This document shows, piece by piece, positions 1,130 through 51,693 of a stretch of 64,000 nt of DNA. Origin of the DNA: Malacoraja senta (lineage: Eukaryota). Location: assembly GCA_038087875.1 (NCBI GenBank), contig CM075993.1:1614001-1678000 (forward strand), written 5' to 3'. Each line of letters starts with the position of its first letter. The first letter of the stretch is position 1. The position numbers and the translations under genes are program-made. A model generated the notes under the pieces. It had not been told where the DNA came from. It ran no database searches and worked only from the letters and a program-made list of their open reading frames with translations.

Positions 1130-1850
1130 GCAAAGCTTTACTGTGAGAGGAGCTAAGCTTAAAGAAGATGTGCAGGGGAAAATGTTCACAAAGAATTTGG
1201 TGTGTGCATGGAATATATTGCCTGGGGTGATGGTGGAGGCAGATATAATAGTGGTGTTTAAGAGTTTTTCTCTGGAGCATCAGAGGTGCAGGGAAGGCGT
1301 AATAGAAGGTTATACAATTAGGAGAGATATAGATAGGATGGACTGTCAGGGTATTTTTCTAGGGTGAAAATATTAAATACTAGGGGGCATAGCTTTAAGG
1401 CAGTAACGGTTTAAAGGAGAGTTACGAGGCATGTTTTTTTACACAGAGGTGGTAGATTCCTGGAACGTGGTGCCCGAGGGAAGTATTCTTCTTGCATATG
1501 GCGTGCACAGCCTAAAGTTGTAGGACAACTTGTTCCATTTGATCTTATTTGATTGTGCACACTAGGTTGATTGCATTCGTTGAAACAGGGCGGACCACGT
1601 GAAGGTTGCAATCTCCCTAAGGGAAGTGGTGGAAGGAGATACAGTAACATTGTTCAGGAAGCGTTTAGACAGGGTCATGAACAGGGAGGGAATGAAGAGA
1701 TATAGGCAATGTGCAGGCACACGTGCATTTTATGTTGGCATCTGCTGCCTGTCCCGCTGAGTTACGCCAGCTTTTTGTGTCTGTCATGGTCAGCACAGAT
1801 GTTGTGGGCTGAAGGGCTTGTTGCTGTTCTGTTCTGTTCTGTTTTATGTT
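1130..1850 (+). mobile_element. Old CR1 3' fragments hosting ribozyme-SINE copy 1
   Basis: RGAKLKEDVQGKMFT...WNILPGVMVEA motif; the host sequence resumes after the insert (gagggaagt|ggtggaagg). Confidence 0.7.
1486..1617 (-). mobile_element. HDV-ribozyme-headed SINE-like element, copy 1 (about 5 nt missing at 5' end)
   Basis: Close match to 12793-12933; 8-bp TSD agggaagt at 1477-1484 and 1620-1627; (AAG)n tail. Confidence 0.85.
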
Positions 1851-5741: not shown

Positions 5742-8700
5742 AGGGGGTGAATCTGTGGAATTCTTTGCCACAGACGGCTGTGGAGGCCAAGTCAGTGGAT
5801 ATTTTTAAGGCAGAGATAGATACATAGATACATAGAAAATAGGTGCAGGAGTAGGCCATTCGGCCCTTCGAGCCTGCACCGCCATTCAATATGATCATGG
5901 CTGATCATCCAACTCAGTATCCCGTACCTGCCTTCTCTCCATACCCCCTGGTCCCTTTAGCCACAAGGGCCACATCTAACTCCCTCTTAAATATAGCCAA
6001 TGAACTGGCCTCAACTACCCTCTGTGGCAGAGAGTTCCAGAGATTCACCACTCTCTGTGTGAAAATGTTTTTTCTCATTTCGGTCTTAAAGGATTTCCCC
6101 CTTATCCTTAAGCTGTGACCCCTTGTCCTGGACTTCCCCAACATCGGGAACAATCTTCCTGCATCTAGCCTGTCCAACCCCATAAGAATTTTGTATGTTT
6201 CTATAAGATCCCCTCTCAATCTCCTAAATTCTAGCGAGTATAAGCCAAGTCTATCCAGTCTTTCTTCATTTGAAAGTCCTGACATCCCAGGAATCAGTCT
6301 GGTGAACCTTCTCTGCACTCCCTCTATGGCTATAATGTCCTTCCTCAGATTTGGAGACCAAAACTGTATGCAATACTCCAGGTGCGGTCTCACCAAGACC
6401 CTATACAACTGCAGTAGAACCTCCCTGCTCCTATACTCAAATCCTTTTGCTATGAAAGCTAACATACCATTCGCTTTCTTCACTGCCTGCTGCACCTGCA
6501 TGCCTACTTTCAATGACTGGTGTACCATGACACCCAGGTCTCGCTGCATCTCCCCTTTTCCTAATCGGCCACCATTTAGATAATAGTCTGCTTTCCTATT
6601 TTTGCCACCAAAGTGGATAACCTCACATTTATCCACATTATATTGCATCTGCCAAACATCCAAGTCACCTTGCAGTCTCCTAGCATCCTCCTCACAGCTA
6701 ACACTGCCCCCCCAGCTTAGTGTCATCCGCAAACTTGGAGATGTTGCCTTCAATTCCCTCATCCAGTTCATTAATATAAATTGTAAATAGCTGGGGTCCC
6801 AGCACTGAGCCTTGCGGTACCCCACTAGTCACTGCCTGCCATTGTGAAAAGGACCCGTTTACTCCTACTCTTTGCTTCCTGTTTGCCAGCCAGTTCTCTA
6901 TCCACATCAATACTGAACCCCCAACACCGTGTGCTTTAAGTTTGTATACTAATCTCTTATGTGGGACCTTGTCGAAAGCCTTCTGAAAGTCCAGATACAA
7001 CACATCCACTGGTTCTCCCCTATCCACTCTACTAGTTACATCCTCGAAAAATTCTATAAGATTCGTCAGACATGATTTACCTTTCGTAAATCCATGCTGA
7101 CTTTGTCCAATGATTTCACCACTTTCCAAATGTGATGCTATCCCATCTTTAATAACTGACTCTAGCTGTTTTCCCACTACCGATGTTAGACTAACTGGTC
7201 TGTAATTCCCCGTTTTCTCTCTCCCTCCCTTCTTAAAAAGTGGGGTTACGTTTGCTACCCTCCAATCCTCTGGAACTACTCCAGAATCTAAAGAGTTTTG
7301 AAAAATTATCACTAATGCATCCACTATTTCTGGAGCTACTTCCTTAAGTACTCTGGGATGCAGCCTATCTGGCCCTTGTGATTTATCGGCCTTTAATCCA
7401 TTCAATTTACCCAACACCACTTCCCGACTAACCTGGATTTCACTCAGTTCCTCCATCTCCTTTGACCCGCGGTCCCCTGCTATTTCCGGCAGATTATTTA
7501 TGTCTTCCTTAGTGAAGACGGAACCAAAGTAGTTATTCAATTGGTCCGCCATATCCTTGTTCCCCATGATCAATTCACCTGTTTCTGACTGCAAGGGACC
7601 TACATTTGTTTTAACTAATCTCTTTCTCTTCACATATCTATAAAAACTTTTGCAGTCAGTTTTTATGTTCCCTGCCAGTTTTCTTTCATAATCTATTTTC
7701 CCTTTCCTAATTAAGCCCTTTGTCCTCCTCTGCTGGTATCTGAATTTCTCCCAGTCTTCTGATATGCTGCTTTTTCTGGCTAATTTGTACGCATCATCTT
7801 TTGCTTTGATACTATCCCTGATTTCCCTTGTTATCCACGGATGCACTACCTTCCCTGATTTATTCTTTTGCCAAACTGGGATGAACAATTTTTGTAGTTC
7901 ATCCATGCAGTCTTTAAATGCCTTCCATTGCATATCCACCGTCAACCCTTTTAGAACTAATTGCCAGTCAATCTTGGCCAATTCACGTCTCATACCCTCA
8001 AAGTTACCTTTCTTTAAGTTCAGAACCGTTGTTTCTGAATTAACAATGTCACTCTCCATCCTAATGAAGAACTCAACCATATTATGGTCACTCTTGCCCA
8101 AGGGGGCATGCACAACAAGACTGCTAACTAACCGTTCGTCATTACTCAATACGCAGTCTAGAATAGCCTGCTCTCTCGTTGGTTCCTCTACATGTTGGTT
8201 TAGATAACTATCCCGCATACATTCCAAGAAATCCACTTCCTCAGCACCCCTGCCAATTTGATTCACCCAATCTATATGTAGATTGAAGTCATCCATTATA
8301 ACTGTTTTGCCTTTGTTGCACGCATTTCTATTTTCCTGTTTGATGCCATCCCCAACTTCATTACTACTGCTGTAGGTGGCCTGTACACAACACCCACCAG
8401 CATTTTCTGCCCCTTAGTGTTTTGCAGCTCTACCCATACCGATTCCACATCCTCCAAGCTAATGTCCTTCCTTTCCACTGCGTTAATCTCCTCTCTAACC
8501 AGCAACGCTACCCCACCTCCTTTTCCTTTCTCTCTATCCCTCCTGAATATTGAATATCCCTGGATGTTCAGCTCCCAGCCTTGGTCACCCTGGAGCCATG
8601 TCTCCGTGATCCCAACTATGTCATAATCATTAATAGCTATCTGCACGTTCAACTCATCCACCTTATTACGAATGCTCCTTGCATTGAGACACAAAGCCTT

Positions 8701-12455: not shown

Positions 12456-12792
12456 GCCCAGAGGTTGTGTGACTCCTTGAGTTCCTCCAACACTGTGTTT
12501 TGCTCAAGATTCTAGCATCTGCAATTTCTTAGAGTAATAGAGTCATAGAGACAAACAGCATGGAAATAATCCCTTCATCCCAACTTCTCCATGCCAACCA
12601 TCCTATGCCCATCTAAGCTAGTCCCATTTGCCTGCGTTTGCCCCATAACTCTCCAACCCTTTCCTAACCATGTACCTGTCCAAGTGTCTTTTAATTGAAG
12701 TTATAGTACCTGCCTCAACTCCCGGCGGCGGTTTCTTGTGTCTCCAGTTATGATCTGCTGAGGGATATCAGTGGTAATTCTCTAGACAAGAT

Positions 12793-12933
12793 CTTCTTCT
12801 TCTTGCGTATGGCGTGCACAGCCTAAAGTTGTAGGGCAACTTGTTCTATTTGATCTTATTTGATTGTGCACGCCGGATTGATTGCATTCGTTGAAACAGG
12901 GCGGGCCACGTGAAGGTTGCAATCTCCCACCCC
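12793..12933 (-). mobile_element. HDV-ribozyme-headed SINE-like element, copy 2 (full length, 141 bp)
   Basis: 12-bp TSD tc(t/c)agacaagat at 12781-12792 and 12934-12945; 3' tail ATACGCAAGAAGAAGAAG; two other copies in the window. Confidence 0.9.
12880..12933 (-). ncRNA. Minimal HDV-like (CPEB3-type) self-cleaving ribozyme, predicted
   Basis: GGGGUGG(P1) GA GAUUGCA(P2) ACC(P3) UUCACGU(L3) GGC(P3') CCGCCCU(P1') GU UUCAA CGAA(J4/2) UGCAAUC(P2'). Confidence 0.85.
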
Positions 12934-13276
12934 TCCAGACAAGATAAAACTCAGCCACTCAACACCCCACAGACTCAGAATAACAGGAGACGGGTGTGGA
13001 AGCCTGACGTGTACTCAGGTTTTAAAACAGTTGAACAATTGGACAACAGCCAGCGAGATTCACCTCAACAAGTCACAATGCTATAGCCAGTCTAATTTTC
13101 ATGCAAAACTTTGCATTGTTTTTATAATATTTTATATAAATGCAAATTATTTAATAATAGTTGATTCAGTTAGGTTACAACAATAATGCAAGAAAAAGCG
13201 TTTCCCAATTCAGAGTGTAGCAAAACTGTCAGCTCATAATTAGGTTTATTGCGCAGTCAATACATTTTCTGTAAAA

Positions 13277-15851: not shown

Positions 15852-17191
15852 TGCCTGGACCTGATGGCATACCCGGTCGTGTTCTAAAAACCTGTGTGGA
15901 CCAACTGGCTGGAGTTTTTACGGACATTTTGAGGTCTGAGGTTCCCACCTGCTTTAAATGGGCATCAATTATACCGGTGCCCAAGAAGAGCAAGGTGACG
16001 TGCCACAATGACTATCGACCAGTGGCACTAACATCGGTGGTGATGAAGTGCTTTGAGAGGTTGATCATGGTGCAAATCAACTCCTACCTCGACAAAAACC
16101 TGGACCCACTGCAGTTCGCTTACCGCCACACAGATCAACGGTGGATGCGATCTCGCTGGCCCTCCACTACGCTCTGGACCACTTGGACAACAAAAACTCA
16201 TATGTCAGGCTGTTATTCATTGACTACAGCTCAGCATTTAATACAATCATCCCCTCCAAGCTGGTTACCAAACTCTCAGAACTGGGTCTCTGCGCATTCC
16301 TCTGCAATTGGATCCTCGACTTCCTCATTCACAGACCACAGTCTGTCCATATTGGTGGAAATGTGTCGGCCTCGATAACAATCAGCACGGGAGCACCTCA
16401 AGGCTGCATGCTCAGCCCCCTCCTGTACTCACTCTATACTCATGACTGCTTAGCCGGTCATAGTGCGAACTCCATCATCAAGTTCGCTGACGACACCACT
16501 GTTGTGGGACGTATCACTGATGGAGATGAGTCAGAGTATAGAAGTGAGATCGACCGTTTGACCAAATGGTGCCAGCACAATAACCTGGCTCTCAACACCA
16601 GCAAAACCAAGGTACTGATTGTGGACGGGGTAGGATGGGGACCCATAGTCCCATTTATATCAACGGGTCGATGGTGGAGAGGGTCAAGAGCTTCAAATTC
16701 CTGGGCGTGCATATCTCTGAAGATCTCTCCTGATGCAATTATAAAGTAAGCACATCAATGCCTTTACTTCCTGAGAAGATTACGGAGAGTCGGTATGTCA
16801 AGGAGGACTCTCTCGAACTTCTACAGGTGCACAGTAGAGAGCATGCTGACCGGTTGCATCGTGGCTTGGTTCGGCAACTTGAGCGCCCAGGAGTGGAAAA
16901 GACTGCAAAAAGTTGTAAACACTGCCCAGTCCATCATCGACTCTGACCTCCCTACCATCGAGGGGATCTATCACAGTCGCTGCCTCAAAAAGGCTGCCAG
17001 CATCATCAAGGATCTACACCATCCTGGCCACTCACTCATCTCCCCGCTGCCTTCAGGTAGAAGGTACAGGAGCCCGAAATCTGCAACATCCAGGTTCAGG
17101 AATAGCTACTTCCCCACAGCCATCAGGCTATTAAACTCAACTCAAACAAAACTCTGAACATTAATAGCCCATTGTACTTTATCTGCTTATT

Positions 17192-17680: not shown

Positions 17681-17884
17681 AGGTACACAAAAATGCTGGA
17701 GAAACTCAGCGGGTGCAGCAGCATCTATGGAGCGAAGGAAATAGGTAACGTTTCGGGCCGAAACCCTTCTTCGGCCCGAAACGTTACCTATTTCCTTCGC
17801 TCCATAGATGCTGCTGCACCCGCTGAGTTTCTCCAGCATTTTTGTGTACCTTCGATTTTCCAGCATCTGCAGTTCCTTCTTTAA
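17681..17884. mobile_element. Young inverted Penelope pseudo-LTR pair with 15-bp TSD, inserted in an older Penelope 3' end
   Basis: About 80-bp near-perfect inverted arms; TSD catactagtttcact at 17666-17680 and 17885-17899. Confidence 0.85.
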
Positions 17885-19916
17885 CATACTAGTTTCACTG
17901 TTTCCTCTTAAGTTTCAGATGTCTGTATAACTCGTTATCACCTATCCCACAGCCAACAATGGATCAGTGTGGGCTCCACCCATTCCCTCTTTCCAGAGAT
18001 GCTGCCTGACCGGCTGAGTTACTCCAGCTTTTTTGTGTCCATCTTCTAATGAAACCCTCATTACATGGAGTGGGTTGGTCACATTGCAAAGTAATCCAAA
18101 AATTGGAAATGTGTGGATTATATGGGTATTGGGTTTAAATAAATCACATGAATCCTTTCAGCTAAAAACAAGGCATGGGTGTGACATTGTTAGAATGTTA
18201 GCAATCCATGGGATTACATCATCAAGAAGGCTTTGCAATATTTGTTACTGTAAGTGGAAATTGAGCAATCCAAACCTTGAAATCTTATTTGGGTAACAGA
18301 GTTTATAAAAACAGCCATAGCAATAATGGTCATTGCTCAAGAACTGTTGATTGAATCTATCATAGTTAACATAGTTAACATAGCTGAGCCATGGTTGAAC
18401 GACTATGGGATTGAGAAATAGACAGATAACAAAATAGAATTAAATATAAATGATCATGCCCAGATATAGATTGGCATCCTGGAAATTCAATCTGAGAAAA
18501 TTAAATTAACAGCATATGCTGGAAATCTGGAACACATACATGTCATGTTGGAAGCACTCAAACAGTATTTGTGGAAAGAAAACAGTCAATGTTTCGGGTC
18601 AAAGATCTTTTACCAGAACTGGGAAAACAAACTAGTTTTAAGTTGCAGAAAGTTTGGGGGAGGGTTGGATTGGGCAAGCACCAGGGCTCCCACAATGATA
18701 GGTGGTTGACCAAGTTATAGGTTAGTGAGGAACGTTAGTGTAAAAGAACGAGTAAATACAAACAAAGGAAGATAACTGAGGGCGGCACAGTGGCACAGCG
18801 GTAGAGTTACTGCCTCACAGCACCAGAGACCCGGGTTCCTTACTACCGGTGCTGTCTGTACCCTCTCCCCATGACCGCGCGAGAAAAAAAAAGTACAACC
18901 AATGCTGAAACTGTGAGACACCAAAGCCTGCAGATTCTACAAATCAATTTAGAAAGCAATGGTGGAAGGTTCAGCGGGTCAGGCAGCAGTAGTGGATAGA
19001 GCAGAGGTTAAAGGTTGATGATGACCTATTATCAGAGCTGGTCAAAGCAGAAATGTAAGTTACCTGAAATTGTTGCACTCAGTATGAACTCCTGAGGGTG
19101 GCGACGTGTTTGGTCGGAAGATGGGAAGATGCTCTTCAAGCTTACATTGAGTTTGGTTGGAGCTGTGTAAGAAACCAAGACAGAGAGGGGTGGAATGGAA
19201 ACATTAAAGTCACTCAGGATCATCTTTGTAGACTGAATGGACCTCTTCAATAAAGTCCAGGTCACAAAAGTCATTAAACTTTAGACTAATGTCTCAAAGT
19301 CTACAATAAAGTAAAGTAACTTTACTGGAGTAAAGTCACCCACTCTGTGTTCCGTTTCCCCAACCTAAACCATAACTCTTTCTCCCCTAAGTCTCTCTGG
19401 TTCTCAGCTTTCACTTTTTCCTTTAAGACACTACTCAAACTATATTGTTATGATCTGATTCCTATGCAATTGAGTCAACTTTTGTTTGATAATGTTCCAG
19501 TTTTGCTCCATAATAGTAATTAAAAGCTGTTGTCCCTCCTCATTCTCCTGTCTGCACTGTTCAGTCATCTGGTGCCCATTACACCAGAGGGGTGTATTTC
19601 ACCAAGTGGTTGAACATAAAACGTCAACACAGAAAGCTTCTGAATTAAAGAGGCTTGAGGAGATGGTCTGTGTCGTGAAGCTAACCAGTAGGAACCTGTA
19701 ACGAACAATTTAATTTAAACAATAGTTTTAAACAATAGAATGAGTCAACAATCTGCTAGGAAGTGTGCGTGGGAGGCAGGAGTAGGATTACATTGTGTGG
19801 GAAGGAAATGCAAATGCTGGTTTAAACCGAAGATAGACACAAAATGCCGGAGTAACTCAGCGGGACAGGCAGCATCTCTGGAGAGAAGGAATGGGTGACG
19901 TTTCGGGTCGAGACCC

Positions 19917-27700: not shown

Positions 27701-27829
27701 TCTTCTTCTTTCGTGTGGCGTGCACAGCCTAAAGTTGTAGGTCAACTTGTTCTATTTGTTTGTGCACGTTGGGTTGATGAAATTAGTCGAAACAGGGTGG
27801 ACCAGGTGAAGGTTGCAATCTCCCACCCC
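27701..27829 (-). mobile_element. HDV-ribozyme-headed SINE-like element, copy 3 (intact 5' end, diverged)
   Basis: Starts GGGGTGGGAGATTGCAACC and ends ACACGAAAGAAGAAGA; inserted at a V-SINE (ctaaa)n tail; probable TSD actaa(a)tct. Confidence 0.85.
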
Positions 27830-35103: not shown

Positions 35104-38100
35104 AACATAGAAACATAGAAACATAGAAAATAGGTGCAGGAGTAGGCCATTCGGCCCTTCGAGCCTGCACCACCATTCAACATGATCATGGCTGATCATC
35201 CAACTCAGTATCCTGTACCTGCTTTCTCTCCATACCCCCTGATCCCTTTAGCCACAAGGGCCACATCTAACTCCCTCTTAAATATAGCCAATGAACTGGC
35301 CTCAACTACATTCTGTGGCAGAGAATTCCAGAGATTCACCACTCTCTGTGTAAAAAATGTTTTTCTCATCTCAGTCCTAAAAGATTTCCCCTTTATCCTT
35401 AAACTGTGACCCCTTGTTCTGGACTCCCCTAACATCGGGAACAATCTTCCTGCATCTAGCCTGTCCAACTTCTTAAGAATTTTGTAAGTTTCTATAAGAT
35501 CCCCCCTCAGTCTTCTAAATTCCAGCGAGTACAAGCCGATTCTATCCAGTCTTTCCTCATATGAAAGTCCTGACATCCCAGGAATCAGTCTGGTGAACCT
35601 TCTATGTACTCCTTCTATGGCAAGAATGTCCTTCCTCAGATTAGGAGACCAAAACTGTACGCAATACTCCAGGTGTGGTCTCACCAAGACCCTGTACAAC
35701 TGCAGTAGAACCTCCCTGCTCCTATACTCAAATCCTTTTCCTATGAATGCTAACATACCATTCGCTTTCTTCACTGCCTGCTGCACCTGCATGCCCACTT
35801 TCAATGACTGGTGTACCATGACACCCAGGTCTCGTTGCATCTCCCCTTTTCCTAATCGGCCACCATTCAGGTAATAGTCTACTTTCCTGTTTTTGCCACC
35901 AAAGTGGATAACCTCACATTTATCCACATTATACTGCATCTGCCATGCATTTGCCCATCCACCCAGCCTATCCAAGTCATCTTGCAGCCTCCTAGCACCC
36001 TCCTCACAGCTAACACTGCCCCCCAGCTTCGTGTCATCCACAAACTTGGAGATGTTGCATTCAATTCCCTCATCCAGTTCATTAATATATATTGTAAATA
36101 TCTGAGGTCCCAGCACTGAGCCTTGCGGTACCCCACTAGTCACTGCCTACCATTCTGAAAAGGACCCGTTTACTCCTACTCTTTGCTTCCTGTCTGCCAG
36201 CCAGTTCTCTATCCACATCAATACTGAACCCCCAATACCGTGTGCTTTAAATTTGTATATTAATCTCTTATGCGGGACCTTGTCGATAGCCTTCTGAAAG
36301 TCCAGATATAACACATCCACTGGTTCTTCCTTATCCACTCTACTAGTTACATCCTCGAAAAATTCTATAATATTCGTCAGACATGATTTACCTTTCATAA
36401 ATCCATGCTGACTTTGTCCAATGAATTCACCATTTTCCAAATGTGTTGCTATCCCATCTTTAATAACTTACTCTAGCAGTTTCCCCACTACCAATGTTAG
36501 ACTAACTGGTCTGTAATTCCCTGTTTTCTCTCTCCCTCCCTTTTTAAAAAGTGGGGTTACATTAGCTACCCTCCAATCATCAGGAACTACTCCAGAATCT
36601 AAAGAGTTTTGAAAAATTATCACTAATGCATCCACTATTTCTGGGGCTACTTCCTTAAGTACTCTGGGATGCAGCCTATTTGGCCCTGGGGATTTATCGG
36701 CCTTTAATCCATTCATTTTACATAACACCACTTCCCGGCTAACCTGGATTTCCCTCAGTTCCTCCATCTCATTTGACCCCCGGTCCCCTGCTATTTCCGG
36801 CAGATTAATTAAGTCTTCCTTAGTGAAGACAGAACCAAAGTAGTTATTCAGTTGGTCTGCCATGTCCTTGTTCCCCATGATCAGTTCACCTGTTTCTAAC
36901 TGCAAGGGACCTACATTTGTTTTAACTAATCTTTTTCTCTTGACATATCTATAAAAACTTTTGCAGTCAGTTTTTATGTTCCCTGCCAGTTTTCTTTCAT
37001 AATCTATTTTCCCTTTCCTAATTAAACCCTTTGTCCTCCTCTGCTGGACTCTGAATTTCTCCCAGTCCTCTGGTAGGCTGCTTTTTCTGGCTAATTTGTA
37101 TGCTTCATCTTTTGTTTTGATACTATCCCTGATTTACCTTGTTAACCACGGATGCACTACCATCCCTGATTTATTCTTTTGCCAAACTGGGATGAACAAT
37201 TGTTGTAGTTCATCCATGCATCCTTTAAATGCCTTCCATTGCATATCCACCGTCAACCCTTTAAGAATCAATTGCCAGTCTATCTTGGCCAATTCACATC
37301 TCATACCCTCAAAGTTACCTTTATTTAAGTTCTGAACCCTTGTTTCTGAATTAATTATGTCACTCTCCATCCTAATGAAGAACTGAACCAATATTATGGT
37401 CACTCTTGCCCACTCTTGCACAACAAGCCTGTTAATTAACCCTTCCTCATTACTCAATACCCAGTCTAGAATAGCCTGCTCTCTCATTGGTTCCTCTACA
37501 TGTTGATTTAGAAAACTATCCCGCATACATTCCAAGAAATCCTCTTCCTCAGCACCCCTGCCAATTTGATTCACCCAATCTATATGTAGATTGAAGTCAC
37601 CCATTATAACTGTTTTACCTTTGTTGCACGCATTTCTAATTTCCTGTTTGATGCCATCCCCAACTCCACTACTACTGTTAGGTGGCCTGTACACAACTCC
37701 CACTAGCGTTTTCTGCCCCTTAGTGTTTCGCAGCTCTACCCATATTGATTCCACATCCTCCAAGCTAATGTCCTTCCTTTCTATTGCATCAATCTCCTCT
37801 CTAACCAGCAACGCTACCCCACCTCCTTTTCCTTTCTGTCTATCCTGAATATTGAATATCCCTGGATGTTCAGCTCCCAGCCTTGGTCACCCTGGAGCCA
37901 TGTCTCCGTGATCCCAACTATATCATAGTCATTAATAGCTATCTGCACATTCAACTCATCCACCTTATTACGAATGCTCCTTGCATTGAGACACAAAGCC
38001 TTCAGGCTTGTTTTTACTACACTCTTACCCCTTATACAATTATGTTGAAAAATGGCCATTTTTGATTTTTGCCCTGGATTTGTCTGCCTACTTTTACTTT

Positions 38101-38396: not shown

Positions 38397-39885
38397 AGGT
38401 CTCGACCCGAAACGTCACCCATTCCTTCTATCCAAAGATGCTGCCTGTCCCGTTGAGTTACTCCAACCTTTTGTGTCTGTCTTCGGTTTAAACCAGCATC
38501 TGCAGGCCCTTGCTACACTATATTTGCCCACGTGGATGGCGTGACTTGATTAAGTCAAAGTTGGCTTTATTTCTCTTTTACAAGCATCACAATCTTGATG
38601 AGGTTACTGTGGAATTTATGGTTCGTTTTTATTATCAGTTCTTGGGTCAGAAGGGTGATAAATAATCTTCAATTCATCATTGTCAGCACAGTTTCTCTTG
38701 ATAATATCAAGAGACATGTCAAGAGCGTTTATTGCCAGATGTACCGATAATGGAACAGTCCAATTCTTACTGGCTGTAGCACAACAGGCCTATAGAAACA
38801 TAGACATAGAAACATAGAAACATAGAAAATAGGTGCAGGAGTAGGCCATTCGGCCCTTCGAGCCAGCACCGTCATTCATTGTGATCATGGCTGATCGTCC
38901 CCAATCAGTAACCCGTGCCTGCCTTCTCCCCATAACCCTTGTTTCCACTAGCCCCTAGAGCTCTATCTAACTCTCTCTTAAATCCATCCAGTGATTTGGC
39001 CTCCACTGCCCTCTGTGGCAGGAAATTCCACAAATTCACACTTCCACAAATTCACAATATCTATAATCAAAATACACAGAGATAATATATAACAACACAC
39101 AAACACAAACTTTATATATATACAGCATCCCTGGATAGAAGGAATGGGTCATGTTTCGGGTCGAGACCCTTCTTCAGAAGGATCTTTGGATCCTTCTCTC
39201 CAGAGACGCTGCCTGTCCCACTGAATTACTCCAGCATGTTGTGTCTATCTTCGGTGTAAACCAGCATCTGCAGTTCCTTCATACATACACACACACACCC
39301 AGGGGTCAAGGAAAGAGCGTTCACGCGCGGCCCTGTTTCCACCAATCTTTCCATCAGCACACACAAGAAGCACAAGACAGACACCATTGCATGCAGATGC
39401 CAAGAAGTGTGTTCATCTGTGGCTGAACAACTTCTAATCCTGTGTGTGGACTCGATAAGATGACACACATATATATTTAGATACACATTTATATATATTT
39501 ACACACACATATGTACACTTAAAAAACAATAATAGTGTAAAAGGAATTCCATCTTGATTGTGTGACATGGTGGTATGCAAACTCTGACCTTAACTGAGTC
39601 CACAGTAGGTTGAATCAAAGTGCATGTATAAAGTCATGAGGGGCATTGATAGGGTGAATGCACCAGAGTCTTTTACCCAGGATAGAGGAATGAAAAACAG
39701 GAGAACATAGGTTTTAAGCAAGATGTAATAGAAAACTGAGTGGCAAATTTTCCCCTCAGAGGGTGGTGGGTATATGGAACAAACTGCCAGAGGAGGTAGT
39801 TGAGGTAGGTATTAGAACAGAATTTAAAAGCCACACGGACAGGTACATGGATAGGAAAGGTTTCGAGGGACCTCACACTAAATGT

Positions 39886-40068
39886 CATCAGCAGCCTGCG
39901 TGTGTGGAGCAGACCAGCAAACAGCGCAGCACGTCATTTTCCACTGCGCTGTCCTCCACCCCCCTGGTGGAGGGGTAGACCTCTCGGCCCTTGACAACAC
40001 CACATTGAACTGGCGACAGGGCCTGGAGGGCATTACATAACCTCTGCTGCCTCAAACGCAAGAAGAAG
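39886..40068 (+). mobile_element. Vingi/Ingi-like LINE 3' fragment
   Basis: Frame 39885-40040 reads SSAACVCGADQQTAQHVIFHCAVLHPPGGGVDLSALDNTTLNWRQGLEGIT* (C-terminal CCHC); tail CAAACGCAAGAAGAAG; 11-bp TSD acactaaatgt at 39875-39885 and 40069-40079. Confidence 0.75.
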
Positions 40069-40944
40069 ACACTAAATGTTGTACCCTTTATCCTTTATCT
40101 TTGCATTGTGGACGGCTTGATTTTATTCATGCGTAGGAAAGAACTGCAGATGCCGGTTTAAATCGAAGGTAGGCACAGAATGCTGGAGTAACTCAGCAGT
40201 ACAGGCCGCATCTCTGGAGAGTAGGAATGGGTGACGTTTTGGATCGAGACCCTTCTTCAGTCAGGGTAGAGGGAGAATAGAGATATGGAAGGGTAAGGCG
40301 CGAAAACGACAGATCAAAGCAGATGTTGATCAAGGAAATGAAGAAGGAGCATTGTTAGCTGATCGTCGTCCGGTTTGATCTGGCATTTTCACATCTCACC
40401 CTTCCACATAATCTCTTATCTCCCTCTCCCTGACATCAGTCTGAAGAAGGGTCTCAACCCGAAACGCCATCCATTCCTTCTCTCCTGAAATGCTGAATTA
40501 CTCCAGCATTTTGTGTCTATCTTCGGTGTAAACCAGCAGCTGCAGTTCCTTCCTACATCTGGCACAGAGTGGATTGCAAGAGTAAACTTTCCCAGGGCAA
40601 TGTTGGGCGGGTAACTTCTGAGAATGATCTGTGTCAGTTAACCTAACCCTTCCTGCTGTAATGATGCGATCAATCTCTTATCAGCCGTGTATGCTTGTAT
40701 TGATGTAATTTATTGCTAAGAGATCCAGTCCACCACCTTTGTGGGACATTCTGTGTAGATCAGGAAGCACCTTGTGCTGGCTTGCTGTTTTCTTATGGTA
40801 TTTAAAGGAATTCTCTGCTACATTGGAAGCCCTGGCTAGATAACCAGGCCCGACAGCTGGTTGCTGCTTTCCAAAGTCCACTGAGTATGTTGCAACAAAC
40901 ATTGAGAGTTTCCTCCAATGTTTAGTTAATATCTTTCCTTCAGA

Positions 40945-51507: not shown

Positions 51508-51693
51508 TTTAAGAAGGAACTGCAGATGCTGGAAAATCGAAGGTAGACAAAAGTGCTGGAGAAACTCAACAGGTGCAGCAGCATCTATGGAGCGAAGGAA
51601 ATAGGTAACGTTTCAGGCCCGAAACGTTGCCTATTTCCTTCGCTCCAAGATGCTGCTGCACCCGCTGAGTTTCTCCAGCACTTTTGTCTAACT
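51508..51693. mobile_element. Inverted Penelope pseudo-LTR pair with TSD
   Basis: Inverted arms; TSD aacagagct at 51499-51507 and 51694-51702. Confidence 0.8.

Follow-up and report, generated by a model that had tools for sequence, protein, structure and literature searches.

A truncated, very probably Vingi-type LINE end and short elements with predicted CPEB3-type ribozyme heads in the skate Malacoraja senta

Results

A truncated retrotransposon end between exact target-site duplications

The window, i.e., the whole 64,000-nt stretch of contig CM075993.1 of the skate Malacoraja senta that was analysed, holds a 183-nt insertion flanked on both sides by an exact 11-bp direct repeat (Table 1), in agreement with the preliminary description of this DNA. 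The coding part of the insertion is a single plus-strand frame without stop, encoding the 51 C-terminal residues of a retrotransposon protein (pattern C-x-C-G..Q-T..H....C..D......W) and closed by a TAA at 40038-40040; the reading CVCG...QT..H...C...D...W proposed earlier corresponds to this open frame. The 3′ UTR, described there as very short, comes to 28 nt including the AAG tail, and the tail itself (40053-40068) follows 12 nt past the stop. The duplication and the frame are both intact, which suggests that the insertion is not very old. In a phmmer search against 1.84 billion proteins the peptide gave 111 matches at E≤0.001, the best at 5e-18, and is therefore not a product of chance.

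Elsewhere in the window, a highly repeated sequence of ~77-300 nt is present in some 30 copies (e.g., 19834-19910, 17683-17829 and 51541-51684), several of which form long near-perfect inverted repeats, and there is a tRNA-like SINE head family. About 0.2 of the sequence words of 39290-40130 are present in runs of eight other organism labels, with no RNA run listed; the results below make no use of these runs.

Table 1. Coordinates of the LINE end, of family A and of candidate element B in the window
Feature	Position	Strand	Remarks
Left target-site duplication, 11 bp	39875..39885	+	identical to 40069-40079
5′-truncated single-ORF end of a LINE, very likely Vingi-type	39886..40040	+	CxC..H..C knuckle
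3′ UTR, 28 nt	40041..40068	+	12 nt, CAAACGC, three AAG
Right target-site duplication	40069..40079	+	exact repeat of 39875-39885
Family A, full-length copy, 141 nt	12793..12933	-	predicted ribozyme fold, long hairpin, CATACGC, four AAG
Family A duplication	12780-12792 / 12933-12945		12/13 bases
Predicted minimal HDV-like (CPEB3-type) fold, family A head	12880..12933	-	descriptor scan, 1 mismatch
Family A, copy without about five 5′ bases	1486..1617	-	94% over 132 nt
Family A, copy with 10-nt deletion	27701..27829	-	82%; fold 27776-27829; tail CACACG + AAAG/AAG
Candidate short element B	39302..39463	+	CPEB3-like fold 39302-39352, long hairpin, degenerate tail

Protein family and clade assignment

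The closest relative of the peptide, one of seven candidates, is a 187-aa protein of Rhinoraja longicauda (NCBI; here P0002) with 80% identity, a match pointing to a skate-like host. P0002 in turn aligns over 91% of its length with three longer proteins (P0003-P0005, three of 326 candidates) at 56-59% identity. P0005 is a 1011-aa ORF filling a 3389-bp contig and carries endonuclease and RT domains. Its relatives at E≤1e-20 number 162, of which 120 are listed; among the matches listed, 87 relatives have at least 900 aa (median length 1003 aa), 80 of these contain the knuckle, and most relatives lie on contigs of 3.0-3.6 kb. From the knuckle to the C-terminus there are 41-50 residues in 77 of the 80, and 47 both in 25 of them and in the fragment. 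This spacing and the chain of identities through P0002 support membership of the fragment in the P0005 protein family, the best full-length members of which are 45-54% identical to it over the fragment. In a tree of 36 C-terminal ends, which comprises unnamed relatives only and is not an RT tree, the fragment joins P0002 (100/99).

The Vingi clade is said to have been described by Kojima et al. in 2011, with Vingi-1_Acar, Vingi-1_EE and Vingi-2_Gav. In excerpts of later work, Vingi is presented as a compact, single-ORF APE element that is sister to Ingi and has no RNase H (PMC13708176), with a single ORF of 993 aa (cited in PMC3708506), and RNase H is reported to be encoded by L1Tc (PMC4035085). 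Domains were scanned in 43 relatives of P0005 picked for high score and near-full length. RVT_1 and Exo_endo_phos (APE) are present in all 43, a feature of the relatives and not of the fragment, and the RNase H domain that would speak for Ingi has no family match at E≤0.1 in any of them, in a scan without an Ingi positive control. Relatives in the PDB are only those from L1, R2 and group II introns. With about 1000 aa, APE and RT and no RNase H in the relatives, the architecture of the protein family, as read from its sequences, is that of Vingi and not of Ingi; the preliminary description had guessed at Ingi/Vingi, of which the architecture favours the second half.

The likeness to the Vingi clade lies in the single ORF of ~1000 aa with APE and RT and without RNase H, the length of ~3.1-3.5 kb and the short 3′ UTR; the fragment differs in keeping only the last 183 nt. 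The clade is also reported, in the part of PMC5786205 drawn on here, to spawn short non-autonomous derivatives. That the fragment is Vingi is thus very likely.

Searches for the DNA of full-length relatives yielded two loci among 62 candidates in metagenome contigs, both decayed 3′ halves (38-41%), and none in viral contigs (39, 31, 7 and 31 candidates), which also gave no match to two head motifs. In genome contigs, they yielded one locus among 40 candidates, L003, 5′-truncated and with no ribozyme match in Rfam. Neither a full-length copy nor the 5′ end of the fragment's own LINE came out of these searches or of the contigs mapped onto family A (below). With P0005 as tblastn query, the fragment is the sole Vingi-like piece found in the window. 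Three RT remnants, 24-31% identical to P0005, are present at 6722-7429 (-), 35442-36740 (-) and 15863-16614 (+); we take the first two to be CR1-like and the third to be Rex1/L2-like.

A short repeat family headed by a predicted HDV-like fold

Three copies of a short repeat, family A, lie in the window. An HDV-like fold had been proposed at the head of the full-length copy, and the pairing bears it out, with 7/7 pairs in P1, 7/7 in P2 and 2/3 in P3; P1.1 consists of a single C-G pair, like that of CPEB3, and a long hairpin lies downstream of the fold. The predicted cut falls directly before 12933 and the predicted catalytic C (J4/2) at 12890. In the Rfam scan the head gave HDV-F-prausnitzii at 12.4 bits (E 5.8), below the gathering threshold, and family A gave no match to RF00622. 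A fold descriptor, written after the sequences had been seen, matched the window at 12933-12880 (1 mismatch), 27829-27776 (2) and 39302-39352 (0); the totals over 50 shuffled versions of the window were 0, 1 and 9 matches at 0, 1 and 2 mismatches.

Contigs from four public runs, two of them guessed to be RNA, were mapped onto 12770-12950, and family A, an abundant repeat, is carried by 12,432 (run X1), 596, 568 and 0 (run X24) of them. The best-supported loose ends are at 12933 (162, 27 and 38 contigs) and at 12792-12799, with unrelated flanks in both places, indicating that copies start at G1, which in HDV-like ribozymes is the base following the cut, and finish in the AAG tail. A short element with a ribozyme fold at its head and its 5′ edge at the predicted cut site is supported by these contigs, and among the loose ends listed none marks an internal break into common LINE-like sequence. 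At 12905, about 99% of the depth has the base that restores the broken P3 pair (P3 3/3 in the family majority), and at 12902 a common variant turns a P1 U-G pair into U-A with pairing kept. The head of family A is predicted to adopt an HDV-like ribozyme fold, a nested double pseudoknot, and to cleave itself.

Two contigs of run X1 carry, at 12896-12933, a head-only piece of A; in both, an identical stretch of 23 unrelated bases connects it to a second A start. A reading of the family A body as coding sequence was rejected, its translation being unlike any of the proteins of the P0005 family.

The Rfam scan and the start of the copies at G1 give no tRNA-, 5S- or 7SL-type head, so that, by the usage found in excerpts of PMC5786205 and PMC4494074, the term non-autonomous LINE suits family A better than Pol III SINE. 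Of the "ribozyme-SINE" of the preliminary description, the repeat with a predicted ribozyme head stands and the SINE label does not. LINEs with a short dependant, and with a 5′ HDV-like ribozyme that cuts at the first base, are known in L1Tc/NARTc, ingi/RIME and R2 SIDE (PMC4035085, in part). Family A resembles these dependants in the HDV-like head at its first base, in its case known from a predicted fold, and is unlike them in its minimal P4 and CPEB3-type loop. For NARTc and RIME the same text reports long end sequences in common with the parent, against the 16 nt that A and the fragment have in common, and for L1Tc an RNase H, in contrast with the relatives of the fragment. The order of parts in A is also that of the alligator SINE2-1_AMi, i.e., a ribozyme-like segment, then a small hairpin, ACACG and a tail of purines (PMC5786205, in part); this element carries a head derived from tRNA plus a Vingi 5′ part, whereas A starts directly at G1.

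A shared tail that marks Vingi-like elements at large

The tails of family A (CATACGC and four AAG) and of the fragment (CAAACGC and three AAG) are identical in 15 of 16 bases, which bears out the likeness noted in the preliminary description, and exact matches to ACGCAAGAAG in the window occur only in the fragment tail and at the end of the A copy 12793-12933. The tail alignment scores 28, a value reached by 6 of 500 shuffles, and no likeness of A and the fragment was detected beyond the tail (score 14, shuffled mean 17). L003, a 5′-truncated Vingi-like element from an unrelated sample and 49% identical to P0005, has at its end a stop followed by a short UTR, then CACACG and a tail of AAG; compared with the last 31-33 nt of A it scores 39 and 43, above the 28 of the fragment. 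Since L003 carries the tail too, the tail marks Vingi-like elements at large, and it supports mobilisation of family A by some Vingi without singling out the family of the fragment. A dependence of family A on some Vingi is, overall, quite likely.

The contig with L003 (2990-4400) belongs to a bacterial metagenome bin, which the element evidently entered as eukaryotic contamination.

Mobilisation of A by a LINE from outside Vingi, such as RTE, with a tail that had converged on a short low-complexity motif, appears very improbable. The tail match does consist mostly of AAG repeats, within reach of shuffled sequence as given above, and the clades listed with 5′ ribozymes in the excerpted part of PMC5786205 are RTE, R1, R2, R4, Ingi and LOA, with Vingi not among them. 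However, the spacing of the CAxACG hexamer of A to a stop-like triplet is the same as in two Vingi-like ends, and the alligator SINE with a Vingi-derived ribozyme likewise ends in a hairpin, ACACG and a purine run (according to the same excerpt).

With a Vingi as the driver of family A, it is doubtful that this was the fragment's own LINE family, a sister Vingi family being the likelier one. In the strictest form of the pairing, A would be an internally deleted derivative of exactly this family, with a common 5′ ribozyme and 3′ end. The matching tail bases include the C of ACGC that L003 lacks, both sequences are from the same genome, the UTR of 12 nt implies that little 3′ sequence need be kept, and Vingi is, with Ingi, RTE and R2, one of the clades reported with bipartite derivatives (PMC5786205, in part). 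Yet upstream of the hexamer, where the 3′ UTR alone is compared with A, 917 of 20,000 random window segments equal the fit of the fragment and 14 of 20,000 that of L003, in a test with a single comparison locus chosen after the sequences had been seen, and the A copy at 27701 has the tail form of L003 and not that of the fragment. Such a derivation is accordingly judged unlikely. What A and the fragment's family have in common at the 3′ end is the 16-nt tail only, with a better fit to L003, and the specific LINE/SINE pair of the preliminary description is not upheld; its proviso that another LINE might match the short element better is borne out in part, by the higher scores of L003 in this one comparison.

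A candidate second element with a CPEB3-like fold

The fold of candidate element B lies 520 nt upstream of the fragment's duplication, and B is inside an AC-rich microsatellite. Every helix of the fold is paired and the descriptor matches without mismatch; the L3 loop is one base short, J4/2 is CCAA, and the tail is degenerate and of GATAAG type. Rfam CPEB3 (RF00622) gives 19.7 bits (gathering 35; E 1.4 over the whole window, 0.0067 locally). The cores of B and A align with a score of 33, reached by 0 of 500 shuffles, with different helix sequences. Neither a second copy nor a clear duplication around B was found in the window, so that B is a candidate family only. That B and the fragment are parts of one element was rejected, given the separate duplication of the fragment and the other repeats between them.

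A looser connection, in which the B-type head is the head used by the fragment's LINE and the two are separate insertions of one lineage, is improbable: the B fold comes closer than that of A to CPEB3 and to the heads of published Vingi elements (P3 GCG/CGC), but its tail is not of AAG type, the repeats in between are unrelated, the fragment has a duplication of its own, and the nearness of B (420 nt upstream, same strand) is no evidence.

CPEB3-type cores, read by eye, in published segments of Vingi elements

The CPEB3 ribozyme (RF00622) has in common with A and B the L3 loop (one base short in B), the one-pair P1.1 junction GT and the CGAA-type J4/2. A and B differ from it in their P1 and P2 sequences, in a 5-nt loop for P4 and in scoring below gathering, and the CPEB3 ribozyme is single-copy and intronic. 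The supplement of PMC5786205, in the part used here, aligns the alligator SINE with the Repbase segments Vingi-2_Gav 2-74, Vingi-4_Crp 1-64, Vingi-1_BF 8-69 and Vingi-2_SPur 395-451. Three of these four segments are at the 5′ end and that of Vingi-2_SPur is internal. By eye, a CPEB3-type core is present in all four (L3 TTCACGT-like, J1/4 GT, J4/2 CGAA-like), and P2 is altered on both strands in Vingi-1_BF and Vingi-2_SPur, which from their name suffixes we take to be from amphioxus and sea urchin, respectively.

Compared by eye with the Rfam consensus of the mammalian CPEB3 ribozyme, the 5′ segment of the gharial Vingi-2_Gav agrees at 43 of the 45 positions covered (32/34 from P1 through the P1 3′ strand and 11/11 in J4/2 and P2), those of the helices among them, the 21 positions between being left out. 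Only about six of some sixty positions are invariant in the HDV-like fold (PMC8256844, in part), so the identity of Vingi-2_Gav and CPEB3 points to descent rather than convergence. The mammalian CPEB3 ribozyme is reported as not found outside mammals (PMC8233481), and the human genome is reported to retain traces of Vingi (PMC5753468, in part).

Discussion

Taken by itself, the fragment is an ordinary dead LINE end, for which the clade had been guessed correctly and the pairing was probably too specific. The reading favoured here joins two statements, that 39886-40068 is a dead 5′-truncated copy of a Vingi-type non-LTR retrotransposon and that family A is ribozyme-headed and Vingi-dependent, and this joint reading is likely to be correct. 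Its insertion would have proceeded by target-primed reverse transcription, which broke off after 183 nt. As non-autonomous elements, family A and probably also B would make use of Vingi proteins and be transcribed by read-through from host promoters or from their own head, as the L1Tc head Pr77 is reported to drive transcription (PMC4035085 and PMC6765202, in part). Their RNA may be cut free at G1 by its own HDV-like ribozyme; a Vingi protein would then bind in trans the short 3′ hairpin and the CAxACG-(AAG)n tail, and target-primed reverse transcription would insert the element.

LINE/short-dependant pairs with 5′ HDV ribozymes (L1Tc/NARTc, ingi/RIME, R2 SIDE) and Vingi derivatives are already known. 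From the aligned sequences, a 5′ ribozyme, with cleavage predicted, is probably a general Vingi feature, so that the full-length parent of the fragment probably has one too, and a 5′ HDV fold in that parent can be expected with good confidence. On a broader and somewhat less certain view, which we hold to be fairly probable, Vingi elements, from amphioxus to crocodilians, and their abundant skate dependants of ~140-160 nt would as a standard have the CPEB3-type ribozyme as 5′ end, and the mammalian CPEB3 ribozyme would be the domesticated 5′ end of a Vingi or of a Vingi dependant. In the literature searched, mostly open-access and with Repbase reports and patents outside its scope, no reports were found of a ribozyme on Vingi or on a skate repeat, and none that derive the CPEB3 ribozyme from Vingi.

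The value of the locus lies in what it leads on to, two kinds of predicted CPEB3-type ribozyme head in one genome and the proposal, open to test, that the mammalian CPEB3 ribozyme goes back to Vingi. Vingi-1_Acar is used as a gene-writing platform in which the RNAs retain the native 5′ UTR (PMC13708176, in part), and a ribozyme at that place would matter for how templates are designed. If the above proposals are true, Vingi would have to be counted among the LINE clades in which self-cleaving ribozymes at the 5′ end do the processing, a vertebrate genome would be full of minimal natural HDV-like ribozymes on a short mobile element, and the mammalian CPEB3 ribozyme would gain its missing outgroup and a testable origin.
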